Shown: one piece after another, positions 6,453 to 30,933 of the stretch
Layout: every line of letters begins with the position of its first letter
How positions within the stretch are numbered: the stretch's first letter is position 1
Origin: Eledone cirrhosa
Taxonomy: Eukaryota
DNA length: 64,000 bases
NCBI GenBank assembly: GCA_964016885.1
Contig: OZ024741.1
Location: forward strand, 124,930,001 to 124,994,000
Reading direction: 5' to 3'
Notes under the pieces: generated by a model
Told to the model about the DNA's origin: nothing
The model's input: only the letters and a program-made list of their open reading frames with translations
Database searches by the model: none
Position numbers and translations under genes: made by a program

Positions 6453-7150
6453 AACACCGATACAAGTATACATGTGTTCGAATTGTAAATGACCAAGTTA
6501 GCTTGGTTGAAAAATACTAATTTAAAATAATATGGTTTTCCTGTCTCGATTTAAAGTAATAAATCAATAAAAATAACAAACCTATATTCGGCAATGGCCG
6601 TGATACCCAGACAAATTCTAAATCTGTTTCGCAACAATTATTAAATGAAAGTCACTATTCCTGTGTTCTCATTATTACAGGGCTCGGAAATATTCCCTTC
6701 TTTGAGCTATTTAATTGTAAAAGACTATTTTGAGATTATAACTCAATATATGGTATTCTAGGCTCCATAAGTAGAGCTAACTTTAGTCCCATAAAACCGG
6801 CTGCTATTTTTAGCGGCACGAGTATGAGACGCGTTAGGCGCTGTGACATGTGCGTTCAACAACACATATTTATCAGTCTTCTTAAGTCTTTTGAAGTGAA
6901 AGGTACGAATTTTCCGGATACCCGCAGAAGAGCACAGGGGTAGTGACTTTCATTTAATAATTGTTGCGAAACAAATTTAGAAGCATTGCCGAATATAGGT
7001 TTGTTATTTTTATTGATTTATTACTTTCAATCAACACAGGGAAACCATATTGTTTTAAATTAGTATTTTTCAACCTAGCTAACTTGGTCATTTACAATTC
7101 GAACACATGTATACTTGTATCGGTGTTAATCCCTCTCATATATTCATTTG
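6453..7150. mobile_element. Fold-back terminal-repeat element (arms 6453-6670/6930-7127) between (TA)n tracts
   Basis: aacaccgatacaagtatacatgtgttcgaattg vs caattcgaacacatgtatacttgtatcggtgtt; right arm has a ~20-bp deletion. Confidence 0.85.
6917..6982 (+). ncRNA. Type I hammerhead, CAGAAGA core; 3' part deleted here but preserved in the left arm (6602-6670, minus)
   Basis: composite: gatacccg-CAGAAGA-gcaca...tgttgc-GAAA-cagatt(tag)aatttg-TC-tgggtatc; 8-bp helix I, GUC site. Confidence 0.6.
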
Positions 7151-7294
7151 TATATATATATATATATATATATATATATATATATATATATATATATATA
7201 TATATATATATATATATATATATATATATATATATATATACATATACATATATATATATATATATATATATATATATATATATATATATATATA

Positions 7295-7565
7295 GGAACA
7301 AGTAAGACCCCGACGGCTGAGCTCAAGCCGTTTCGACGGATAATTCTGTACAGAATTAGCCGTCGAAACGGCTTGAGCTCAGCCGTCGGGGTCTTACTTG
7401 TTCCTATTACCCACTCTACTACCCTAAGTATTGAGTACTTTGGTGCGTTATGGTCCACCCGGTTCCTTACCACATTTCCTTCGTTATATATATATATATA
7501 TATATAGGAACCAGTAAGACCCCGACAGCTGAGCTCAAGCCGTTTCGACGGCTAATTCTGGACTC
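7295..7565. repeat. Stuttered short copies of the same terminal-repeat 3' end; 7295-7404 is a spacerless 110-bp near-perfect palindrome
   Basis: ggaacaagtaagaccccgacggc...ctgtacag...gccgtcggggtcttacttgttcc; further fragment at 7506-7565. Confidence 0.9.
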
Positions 7566-7682
7566 ATATATATATATAAATATATATATAACGAAGGAAA
7601 TGTGGTAAGTAACCAGATGGACTATAACGCACCAAAGTACTCAATACTTAGGGTAGTAGAGTGAATAATAAGAACTAGTAAG

Positions 7683-7778
7683 ACCCCGACGGCTGAGCTC
7701 AAGCCGTTTCGACGGATAATTCTGGACTAAATGAAAATTTTTATCCTGGTACATGAATAGCCGAGCTTCTCAGGGGGT
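7683..7778 (-). ncRNA. Type I hammerhead-like motif, CUGAGAA core
   Basis: minus: acccc-ctgagaa-gctcggctattc...gaattatccgtc-GAAA-cggcttgagctcagccg-TC-ggggt; all three helices and GUC site. Confidence 0.6.
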
Positions 7779-9194
7779 AATACCATATATGGTAAAAGTG
7801 ATTGTCACAAGAATTGGTCAAAAGTTTGTTGTTGAGACACATAATTCTATCATGGCATTTTGTGGAAGGAAGGGGTAGCTGAACTTGCCAGTAGAAGAAA
7901 GAGGGAGAGGGAGTGGAGTAACCCCAGTCGTGCGTTAATAGTGCCAACTACAGCAGAATCCTAAGGATAAGAGGTCAAGAGAAGTATACTAGGGAGGGAG
8001 AGGGGGAGGAAGTCGAAACAATAAGTAAATCAATATGGAGTAAATATATGGAAGAATAATAAGAATGTTAAAAATATTTAAAAAAAAACAATTTCTGTTT
8101 ACTATTCCCCTACCACAATCATCAAGTCTCTCACTGGTACTGCTAAACTATAGAAACATTTAATAGGTAGGACGGAATACTAAACACGAGTTGTAGTAAA
8201 AGAATTTTATGAGTTAGTAGTAATCGTCCAAATCTATCTTACAGTGGCAGGTCAACAAGTAGGGGCCAAAATACTAAAGAAACTACTACGAAATAATGAT
8301 TCAGAGTCCCGAAACTAATACGAAATAATAATTCAGAATCCCGAAAATGAATACTAATACGATATATAAGAGTACCGCTACGATACATAAATTCTAATAC
8401 AAACTACATAAATGCTCGTACGATATATATGAAAAATTTAATACGAAAAATTAATTCAGAATTAATTCAGAATTAATTCAGAATTAATACGAAAAATTAA
8501 TTCAGAATTAATGCTGAATTAATTTTTCGTATTAAATTGTTCATATATATCGTACGAGCATTTATGTAGTTTGTATTAGAATGTATGTATCGTAGCGGTA
8601 CTCTTATATATCGTATTAGTATTCATTTTCGGGATTCTGAATTATTATTTCGTATTAGTTTCGGGACTCTGAATTATTATTTCGTAGTAGTTTCTTTAGT
8701 AGTTTGGCCCCCTATTTGTTGACCTGTCACTGTAAGATAGATTTGGACGATTACTACTAACTCATAAAATTCTTTCACTACAACTAGTGTTTAGTATTAC
8801 GTCCCACCTATTAAATTTTTCTATAGTTTAGCAGTACCAGTGAGAGACTTGATGATTGTGGTAGGGGAATAGTAAACAGAAATTGTTTTTTTTTTTATAT
8901 TTTTAACATTCTTATTATTCTTCTATATATTTACTCATATTGATTTACTTATTGTTTCGACTTCCTCCCCCTCTCCCTCCCTAGTATACTTCTCTTGACC
9001 TCTTATCCTTGGGATTCTGCTGTAGTTGGCACTATCAACGCACGACTGGGTTTCCTCCACTCCCTCTCCCTCTTTCTTCTACTGGCAAGTTCAGCTACCC
9101 CTTCCTTCCACAAAATGCCATGATAGAATTATGTGTCTCAACAACAAACTTTTGACCAATCCTTGTGACAATCACTTTTACCATATATGGAATT

Positions 9195-9291
9195 ACCACC
9201 TGAAAAGCTCGGCTATTCATGTACCAGGATAAAAAATGTTCATTTAGTCCAGAATTAGCCGTCGAAACGGCTTGAGCTCAGCCGTCGGGGT
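9195..9291 (+). ncRNA. Mirror copy of the hammerhead-like motif, CUGAAAA core
   Basis: accac-ctgaaaa-gctcggcta...tagccgtc-GAAA-cggcttgagctcagccg-TC-ggggt. Confidence 0.55.
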
Positions 9292-28542: not shown

Positions 28543-29042
28543 AATTATATATAAAGTTGTAGTTCCTGTCTGTTTCTTTGTTTGTTTACGAACTCCTCCG
28601 ATGGTTTTGGAGATAGACCCCCATAACCATATATATTCTGAAACTATATTGCCCAGGGTACTTGGATAAGTTTATTTCATTTTAATAAAGGATTCCGCGG
28701 GGGCACAAACCCCAACTGAAAATGTTTTTCCTTCGATTTATATGAAATTTAAACCATAGGTAAATGACAAGATATGATGCCTATTCACAAATGTTTTGAA
28801 TTGATATCTTGAAAAAATTATTTACGAGAAACAAAATAAGAATAAGATTTAATAATGTAATTTTGATTTGATATATTACAAAAAACAATGTTTTCCAATT
28901 TTTCATACATTACATTTTACATTGAGTAATATTGAAATGCAGAGTTTTTCTTCATAAATAATATCACTGATTTAAAATCAATCATCATTTTCTTACAAAA
29001 AGAAATGTGTGAAACTCAGCAAGGCGTGGGTAATTCGGCTAG
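28543..29042 (+). mobile_element. Possible non-autonomous Helitron-type element
   Basis: starts in AT run with tgtctgtttctttgtttgttt, ends gcaaggcgtgggtaattcggCTAG followed by T; terminal hairpin weak. Confidence 0.35.
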
Positions 29043-29093
29043 TATATATATATATATATATATATATATATATATATATATATATATATATAA

Positions 29094-29750
29094 GTGGTAA
29101 CACAACAGTTAGTTCACCATAACGAGAACAATTGTTTCACCTTAGCGGATCTTCAGCTGGTACTGGTCATGGTTATACGGAACAGGAAGAACAACCCTAT
29201 GAACGCGCATGCGCAGAAACGGTCACTTCACCCAAGTGATACAAAGCCACGGGCGAAAGGTGAAAGGGAGATAACTGCAAAAGTCGGAAAAGATCTTCGA
29301 GTTGATGAGAAAATTAGAATGTTGTTGTAATTCAATCTAGAGCTTTGTAGTTATTCAAGAGGTGTTTCCAGACATGTGGACAACGTGAGAAGATTTCATT
29401 TCTTGAATTTAAGCAATCGCTATTGCGTAATCTCCTTAGAATATTTATCCTTTCTTCAATACACAGTCCACAAGACGGATTGCCCCTAGCGTATGGCTTG
29501 GACTTTCCATTGAATGGGGTAGTTTATACCTGAGTCCTTGAGGGACCATACGAGGCTGGCGAGTTTCGGGGTTGATCGTTTGTCCGGGTACATAACGGTC
29601 GACTGATGGTTCAGGAAACGTACCTTAAATCGGCCCTCTGCCATACCCACTTAAGGAACGCTTCCTGAACCACCAGTCGACCTTTAGATACCCGGACAAA
29701 CGTGTATTGAAGAAAGGATAAATATTCTAAGGAGATTACGCAGTAGCGAT
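29094..29750 (-). mobile_element. PLE 3' fragment (GIY-YIG C-terminus + UTR + HHR) with an inverted, internally deleted copy at 29651-29750
   Basis: manual minus-strand translation: VGMAEGRFKVRFLNHQST..LASLVWSLKD..IQW / KPY..SCGLCIEERINIL..CLNSRNEIFSRCPH; not in the ORF track. Confidence 0.85.
29122..29161 (-). ncRNA. Minimal type I hammerhead, canonical core
   Basis: accag-CTGAAGA-tccgctaaggt-GAAA-caattg-TT-ctcgt; palindromic helix III. Confidence 0.75.
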
Positions 29751-30773
29751 ACGTCGACATTTATACAATGCTGGACAAGAGAAACTCTCTGAGGTTAATG
29801 ACCAGTATCCCTTTTGGTACAGCATGTTATCCCTCAACCCTCCATAGATGTAAACATGGAAAGTAACATGGGAACTGTGCGATTTCAGCAAACGAGTCAT
29901 CTATTGGCCAATGGCGACAAGCACTCAATTCTGGGCAATCCTAATGTTGAATTATTGGATATTTAGTGTAAGTTTCAAACTGATAATGCAGTCGTGAATA
30001 TTTCAAGGATAAACTAAAATGGCTGTTTTAGTTAAGTGCTGTTTGCAAGGTTTATCAGATTAAAGATAAATCAGAATATCAACAGTAAGCCGAGCTATCG
30101 CAGTTAACATACTCGAATGATCCGTTACGTAACGACAAACATCAAGTTTAACGAGGATAGTAGAGCTGAATGTATTGCTTGTATAAACAACACTCACAAA
30201 TTCTGGTAATTTGTCAGTTCGATATGATATTCACCCGGCTATTATCTTCTACTACGGGAATGACAACGTGAAAATAAAAGAAAATAATCCTAGTCAAACG
30301 GCCAAATTTAATTCAGATGCTTAGCCTTTATCGCAAATTTGTCAATGCTAGATTAACAATTCCTATAAAATGTTGGGATCCATGTTTAATAACAGTACAG
30401 TTTCCCTAACAAATAGTCAACTCAGGCACGTACATCATAGCAATTGCAATAGAAATGCATATGTAGGTATTCTTATATTCTTTAGCAGGCTTCGGCCATT
30501 TACCTACGGGGATGATGAGATTTAGTAGATCGTTTGACACCAGTAATTACTGCTTACTTATCTCTATCTCTATCTCTCTCTCTCTCTATATATATATATA
30601 TATATATATATATATATATATATACACGGGTGTGTATGATTGTGTATAGAAGATTATATTAATAAAAGGAATTCCAACTTTGTCTGATTTACTCGTTTTA
30701 TTTACAATCTTTTAAAATTTATAATGGTATTAGAATGAATAGTATGGTAGACTATTAAATGTTAAGTGTTAAT

Positions 30774-30812
30774 TGAACAAGTACTTTCATGCTTTCGCAA
30801 TCTTCTGGTTCA
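30774..30812 (-). ncRNA. Identical mirror copy of the minimal CAGAAGA hammerhead
   Basis: exact reverse complement of 30895-30933. Confidence 0.8.
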
Positions 30813-30894
30813 TATTCTGTGGTGACAGTCAAATTAGCAATTTTCAACTGTGAAAACAGTTGAAAATTGCAAACTTGACTGTCACCACAGAATA

Positions 30895-30933
30895 TGAACC
30901 AGAAGATTGCGAAAGCATGAAAGTACTTGTTCA
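30895..30933 (+). ncRNA. Minimal type I hammerhead, CAGAAGA core
   Basis: tgaac-CAGAAGA-t-tgc(gaaa)gca-t-GAAA-gtac-TT-gttca; GNRA-capped helix II, palindromic helix III agtact. Confidence 0.8.

Follow-up and report, generated by a model that had tools for sequence, protein, structure and literature searches.

An A4 variant of the type I hammerhead core in Hydra-clade Penelope-like retroelements of Eledone cirrhosa

In a 64,000-nt stretch of the Eledone cirrhosa genome (GenBank assembly GCA_964016885.1, contig OZ024741.1, positions 124,930,001 to 124,994,000 of the forward strand; hereafter the window, in whose own numbering all positions are given), we have studied hammerhead ribozyme motifs in which an A stands in the place of U4 of the CUGA U-turn. 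Repeats abound in this eukaryotic DNA, whose GC content is mostly 30–45% (2-kb bins) and which has many (TA)n runs; one repeat family suggests a likeness to octopus DNA. A first-pass annotation, made from the letters alone, had drawn attention to a CAGAAGA core at three sites, and we found that core at each of them (23014–23020, 30900–30906 and 6925–6931), together with the GAAA (23034–23037, 30919 and 6968). At 23009 and 30895/30774, the motifs are genuine hammerhead folds of type I, such as Hydra-clade Penelope-like retroelements (PLEs) carry, with a three-helix junction open at helix I; at 6917, this junction is not present within one strand. Since 23014, 30900 and 6917 have A where the U-turn has U4, we class them as variants and not as canonical type I hammerheads.

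The motif at 23009 lies downstream of a Hydra-clade PLE coding region at 20185–21965 (+), which is 5′-truncated, frameshifted and preceded by (TA)n. Homologues cover 20185–21911 in tblastn, with the reverse transcriptase (RT) first, followed by a GIY-YIG endonuclease at the C terminus; the encoded protein has 88 homologues of 34–54% identity. Features described for the Hydra clade are DKT, RWK, a CxCX5C linker, no CCHH, a C-terminal GIY-YIG and (TA)n targets (PMC8557442). The window copy starts with the KT of DKT and contains the CxCX5C linker; the RWK would fall within its truncated part, while the homologues show both RW(K/R) and DKT. CCHH is absent from the protein, as judged by eye only. 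Pfam matched one of the four protein pieces (GIY-YIG, E 9e-4, in the second copy only and below the curated cut-off), and the two nearest proteins received no names from a cluster look-up. By its DKT, CxCX5C linker, C-terminal endonuclease and TA targets, the sequence of the frame identifies it as a Hydra-clade PLE; Naiad identity was rejected, the endonuclease being C-terminal, not N-terminal.

The presumed 3′ untranslated region (UTR) of this element (21966–23078, +) ends 24 nt past the predicted cut and is followed by (TA)n; in 1,575 reads, the 3′ end at 23078 is followed by TA. The 23014 core stands on the same strand, ~1.05 kb behind the RT and GIY-YIG frame, and (TA)n occurs at both ends of the unit. 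From strand, spacing and TA flanks, we infer that the motif belongs to the coding region. The presumed 3′ UTR also holds a 141-bp tandem pair (22647–22930), which other copies hold too (joints back 140–141 nt). Exact-pattern scans with pieces of the three A4 families yielded no match in genome contigs or viral contigs, and a Hydra protein scan of the viral contigs had no match.

The type I hammerhead at 23009–23059 (+) was recovered with the descriptor and, weakly (E 5.9), with the covariance model described below, and its A4 core is backed by the family majority. Helix I has 5 bp (23009–23013 with 23055–23059) and is followed by the core (23014–23020), helix II (23021–23033, closed by a U.U pair), the GAAA (23034–23037) and a long helix III (23037–23053) that begins with G15.2:C16.2; the cleavage triplet is CUU, and the cut is predicted after U23054. 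In the window copy, C23022 is opposite A23032, a C.A mismatch in helix II.

The second motif, at 30895–30933 (+), is a minimal type I hammerhead with A4, a CUU triplet and a palindromic helix III of the dimer type, which emerges from the descriptor, the covariance model and the predicted folds. It consists of a 5-bp helix I, the core at 30900–30906, a helix II of U.U plus 3 bp with a GAAA loop, the GAAA at 30919 and a palindromic mini helix III. An identical mirror copy occurs at 30774–30812 (−), and both copies are contained in a young, (TA)n-flanked fold-back (inverted) insertion, 30559–31148, the two arms of which differ at 2 of ~226 non-TA columns (~99% alike) and count as one instance. 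A4 occurs in both arms. Most likely, to judge by this likeness, it was already present in the donor RNA, the alternative being arm-to-arm conversion. The 30900 motif lies ~150 nt before the (TA)n-flanked end, and 23014 lies 24 nt before its own. The fold-back junctions are found at 6669, inside the core, in the 6917 family and at 30851–30856, ~45 nt before the core, in the 30895 family. Other copies have strand-switch joints at 23014 as well.

The third motif is an incomplete A4-core hammerhead at 6917–6981 (+), consisting of a helix I 5′ strand, the core at 6925–6931, a long and bulged helix II and the GAAA at 6968; an 18-nt deletion removes the triplet and the helix I 3′ strand. What is missing is preserved solely on the minus strand, in the inverted arm (6602–6669), which carries helix II, GAAA, helix III, GUC and the helix I 3′ strand (6612–6602) and in which the homology stops inside the core. 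The 8-bp helix I ascribed to this motif hence combines pieces of two strands and does not belong to a single RNA that could fold, and the motif fails the hammerhead descriptor. The arms are ~6% apart, and the sequence of the inverted arm at the breakpoint, UGAGA, is ambiguous. Intact helices, claimed at first for all three sites, are found only at 30895, given the C.A mismatch at 23009 and the lost parts of 6917. The absence of shared flanks was borne out: homology among the regions upstream of the three motifs was rejected in 150-nt local alignments (p 0.3–0.6). No coding sequence is attached to the 30895 and 6917 families, whose presumed Hydra descent is based on TA flanks, fold-back form and motif style.

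With a type I hammerhead descriptor in which position 4 was left free, the A4 core was matched at 23014 (+), 30900 (+) and 30807 (−), and the U4 core at 35175 and 62410. As 30900 and 30807 are arms of one insertion, there are two independent complete A4 motifs, not three. Against these three matches (two independent), 150 block-wise dinucleotide shuffles averaged 0.007 and never exceeded 1. C3:G8, G5, A6, A9, G12, A13, A14, A15.1:U16.1 and H17 are all present in both 23014 and 30900. From 32 U4 Hydra hammerheads, we built a covariance model, which gave E values in the window of 2e-5 (35170), 0.003 (30895/30774), 0.003 (29122), 0.017 (62405), 0.035 (14309) and 5.9 (23009, with its long helix III); although trained solely on U4 motifs, it thus detects 30895, while 6917 is not among the 24 matches listed for the window. 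No hammerhead family is among the best 150 of 170 Rfam matches, and this applies equally to the canonical U4 motifs of the window.

Whether A4 is the consensus, a check that the first-pass annotation had proposed, was addressed for the 23014 family in four runs of three organisms (A, B and C) from three studies, aligned to 22790–23080 at 80% likeness: 14,357 contigs and 15,780 of 12.5 million raw restriction-site-associated DNA (RAD) reads from A, 43 contigs from B and 7 contigs from C. This is clearly a very abundant family; the depths should not be read as copy numbers. Among the best 40 of 92 variant rows, the weakest of which stand at ~13–16%, there is no difference at position 23015, so that A4 is the majority state in all four runs. 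Contigs 17 and 23 of organism C, which hold 161.8 of 168.3 depth, show 7 and 2 differences, each of them matched to another listed place, and in organism B, all differences of contig 16 are assigned to other listed places; these contigs thus carry A4. A U4 majority is ruled out for this family.

Only two of the listed rows fall in 23007–23080, and both are private to the window copy. Position 23032 is G in 93%, 92%, 100% and 100% of the four runs, which restores a C-G pair, so that helix II comprises U.U and three C-G pairs; position 23042 is C in 88%, 87%, 100% and 100%, which gives a helix III of 5 bp. Segregating positions amount to 11/77 upstream (22930–23006) versus 0/74 in the motif and its tail (Fisher p 7e-4, listed rows only), and no listed row has a variant at G5, A6, G8, G12, A13 or A14. 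Three runs show a step up in depth immediately ahead of helix I. At 23009, 51 contigs come in from a homologue of the upstream sequence that is ~70% like that of the window (by eye); diverged subfamilies therefore keep the motif. The data support that A4 is inherited across the 23014 family and is not damage. The first-pass view that A4 does not reflect decay thus stands for this family and, indirectly, for 30895, where both nearly identical arms carry it. Rare joints of two kinds were seen in other copies of the 23014 family, namely a strand switch between 23014 and 23055 and a link from 23073 to 23055, the base directly behind the predicted cut; they involve few loci, we give them little weight, and helix I microhomology accounts for the strand-switch type.

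As the first-pass annotation had stated, two of the three motifs (23014 and 30900) combine the CUU triplet with a U.U pair closing helix II. It had taken both as possibly compensatory for A4. We reject this for U.U and U17, which are ordinary Hydra traits: U10.1.U11.1 occurs in 18 and U17 in 5 of 54 distinct U4 Hydra motifs (A7 in 15), they occur in 14/26 and 10/26 of the published Hydra rows (PMC8557442), and U.U also closes helix II in the window U4 motifs 35175 and 29157. The C of the CUU triplet is unusual, as it belongs to G15.2:C16.2. Positions 15.2/16.2 are C:G in 54/54 distinct U4 motifs and in 86/86 of the covariance-model set, and the flip is found in 2/2 complete A4 motifs versus 0/54 U4 motifs (p 6e-4 if independent). 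This pair can vary in the host, given that U:A takes its place in the 41269/62410 family. The pattern is accounted for equally well by covariation and by common descent of 23014 and 30900. The two have A4, A7, U.U, G15.2:C16.2 and U17 in common, and one inherited variant fits as well as convergence; the proposed threefold origin of the substitution is not supported.

The first-pass annotation had omitted the non-A4 hammerheads of the window. Three U4 families and one motif with the known U3:A8 core swap are present. The U4 hammerhead at 35170–35210 (+; core 35175) has a U.U-closed helix II. A second one, at 29122–29161 (−; core 29157), with A7, U.U, GUU and C15.2:G16.2, lies ~170 nt behind a Hydra endonuclease remnant (29647–29330, −); its helix II resembles a shorter version of that of 23014, so that it is possibly a U4 sister of the A4 family. 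The third, at 62405–62467 (+; core 62410), has relatives at 41269 (−) and 45661 (−) and belongs to a second Hydra PLE, with copies at 41172–44166 (−) and 59421–62515 (+), 83% alike, and a 3′ piece at 45611–45666 (−). Its helix III is palindromic and TA-rich and begins with U15.2:A16.2. The element ends in a U4 hammerhead ~0.84 kb behind its frame (44166–42149, −; relative at 59598–60853), and the ~1.05 kb spacing of 23014 is thus not unusual. A short (TA)n run comes after the U3:A8 motif (14309–14348, +; core 14314).

The A4-linked and U4-linked RTs (38% identical) group with P0001 and P0002 in a quick tree of 42 RT pieces (Shimodaira–Hasegawa-like approximate likelihood ratio test, SH-aLRT, 100), the U4-linked row being flagged as a long branch. 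A4 and U4 families thus share one genome and, by this grouping, probably one RT sub-clade. With the three U4 families and the U3:A8 motif in the same window, the initial description of the core as lineage-specific goes too far.

Of the other repeats in the window, six further long inverted repeats (15–769, 2740–3722, 7343–7732, 7738–9235, 24414–24830 and 35350–35463; several are (TA)n-flanked) contain no hammerhead by descriptor or covariance model. A dispersed family resembling short interspersed nuclear elements (SINEs), ~150–300 bp long, occurs in many copies (3166–3356, 4385–4521, 13544–13854, 24404–24960, 27767–27948, 33215–33424, 47537–47652 and 58778–59098). The 287-aa frame at 44366–45229 (−) resembles, by eye, a Tc1/mariner-type transposase in its motifs.

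A4 was absent from the other Hydra loci that we screened. In 77 Hydra-like metagenome loci, the descriptor found 70 motifs in 54 loci, of which 68 are C3U4, one U3:A8, one G3:C8 and none A4; the covariance model gave 90 matches there (U4 in 89, C4 in one, A4 in none). The variants among these loci are G3:C8 (L058:4046–4085 and L066:2597–2636), U3:A8 (L036:2395–2435) and the single C4 (L012:2422–2469, −).

In the published Hydra-clade PLE hammerheads (Craig et al. 2021, PMC8557442), we recognise the type I fold near the 3′ end, the RT with C-terminal GIY-YIG, the (TA)n and the short helix III; all 26 of those rows, however, have CUGANGA and C15.2:G16.2 (by eye; the descriptor there is canonical), in contrast to CAGAAGA and G15.2:C16.2 here. 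The minimal, dimeric metazoan PLE hammerheads (Cervera and De la Pena 2014, PMC4209133) share with 30895 a short palindromic helix III, a predicted dimer and the lack of a clear loop-loop contact. Their family-level core variant is U3:A8, also present here at 14314, and it leaves U4 and the pairing of 3 with 8 in place; a change at position 4 appears neither in the accessible text parts nor in two searched supplements. Natural core variants compiled by Perreault et al. 2011 (PMC3088659) are the viroid U4C, A6C, U3:A8, U15.1:A16.1 and U10.1.U11.1, U.U closing helix II being tolerated. Position 4 varies naturally at a cost in rate, but here a purine takes its place and forms the majority allele in a family amplified en masse; U4A has no match in the accessible text of that work, and its 11 supplementary files contain no CAGANGA string. 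The Poseidon (PAc) hammerhead of Anolis (PMC11167929), from which the protein-assisted mechanism is known, is likewise a PLE hammerhead, albeit of another PLE clade and with measured activity. We found no report of a U4A or CAGANGA hammerhead in the accessible literature, including PMC3088659, PMC4209133, PMC11014351 and PMC8557442, a search outside which most subscription papers fall. Natural variation of the core is familiar from PLE hammerheads; what appears to be new is that A4 prevails in a mass-amplified family.

We favour, with moderate confidence, the view that these motifs are 3′-end hammerheads of Hydra PLEs, at least one abundant family of which has an inherited A4, and that they likely cleave slowly, helped by protein or dimer formation; we place it ahead of a silent fold, of founder spread and of decay, in that order. 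The core of 23014 and 30900, canonical at every position but 4, speaks for it. The transcripts would fold as type I hammerheads and be cut after U17, with G12 and G8 taking part in catalysis as usual, G12 being the base and the 2′-OH of G8 the acid, around the CUGA U-turn (PMC6155905). Loss of the U4 contacts of the U-turn could be borne, since slow cleavage with help from a protein is in any case the mode of PLE hammerheads: their minimal hammerhead ribozymes (min-HHRs) are slow and dimeric (PMC4209133), and one PLE hammerhead cleaves only with the protein of its element (PMC11167929). A viroid U4C variant is slow in vitro and sufficient in vivo (PMC3088659). The G15.2:C16.2 flip would keep helix III yet permit the pairs A4-U16.1 and G5-C16.2, for which A4 and C16.2 supply the complementarity, and this pairing may hold a lone copy off until a dimer or a protein opens the fold.

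Both pairs appear in the predicted minimum-energy monomer of 30895–30933 (−5.5 kcal/mol, z −0.9), which is 1.3 kcal/mol below the open form; the predicted dimer, with the palindromic helix III strands paired and A14 paired with U17 besides, has −16.4 kcal/mol versus −5.5 for each of two monomers. These monomer and dimer folds are weak predictions. A core-loop III pairing was rejected (only 4 bp in 23014 and absent in 30900, by eye), as was a sarcin-ricin-like reading of 30895, in which the closing pair fails (by eye). C(AGAA)G might act as a mimic of the (U/A)GNN tetraloop family, for which a search for support gave nothing usable.

Several points weigh against an active A4 ribozyme as the inherited state. 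Cleavage of the A4 motifs is a prediction from sequence and fold, and the predicted folds pair A14 with U17 and, in 30895, A4/G5 with U16.1/C16.2, which would hinder cutting. In a type III hammerhead, all single and double CUGA-turn mutants except the C3:G8 swap have low activity (PMC9901934), and dead PLE-hammerhead mutants insert normally in vitro (PMC11167929), so that cleavage is dispensable there and selection need not act on it. In the family data, each run has at least one unlisted A>T place at 5% or more, with which a U4 minority of up to ~15% is compatible; reads starting inside the core are not counted at 23015, and the genome-wide sampling covers the 23014 family only. Moreover, 6917 has A4 without the G15.2:C16.2 flip, and the link between 23014 and the coding region is one that we infer.

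The first two of these groups of observations, namely the weak CUGA-turn mutants and the normally inserting catalytic mutants together with the non-cleaving pairs favoured by A4, C16.2 and U17 in the predicted folds, fit a conserved silent fold, in which cleavage has been lost and the junction kept as a 3′-end recognition site for the RT-endonuclease protein. Naiad PLEs spread without canonical hammerheads (PMC8557442), and the conserved block of the 23014 family takes in the 3′ tail, as a recognition region would. A binding site, however, would not obviously need all catalytic letters in three families with unrelated flanks, and G5, A6, G8, G12, A13 and A14 are intact in all three motifs, besides their invariance in the listed 23014 rows; we regard a silent fold as possible, though less probable than a slow, assisted ribozyme. 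Rather doubtful is the bolder proposition of a rewired-core sub-type, in which A4, A7 and a G15.2:C16.2 latch would make up a self-cleaving form spread over several Hydra families of one animal lineage, released by dimerisation or protein and missed by CUGANGA searches.

It is unlikely that one or two masters with a neutral or mildly harmful U4A were simply amplified, with no selection on the motif. High-copy families do descend from few masters, U4 families thrive beside A4 in the same window, and the shared set of A4, A7, U.U, G:C and U17 may derive from one ancestor; yet subfamilies that differ upstream keep the motif, as the contrast in segregating positions among the listed rows also indicates, and A4 is common to three organisms and stands behind three unrelated flanks. 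That the three motifs are decayed U4 copies or chance matches is highly improbable: the arms and the deletion of 6917 are those of a visibly decayed copy, whose UGAGA could be a U4 remnant, and no hammerhead is among the Rfam matches listed, but the shuffles, the A4 majority and the A4 in both 30895 arms speak against it, which refutes decay or chance for 23014 and leaves it standing only for 6917.

With U4 fixed in hammerhead descriptors, the A4 family is invisible to standard searches, and PLEs reported to lack hammerheads deserve rescanning with position 4 left free. The A4 and U4 families, in one genome and probably one RT sub-clade, constitute a natural test of selection for cutting versus selection for the fold only. 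If A4 motifs cleave, the hammerhead core tolerates a purine in its U-turn; if they do not, the conserved motif would have a non-catalytic job.

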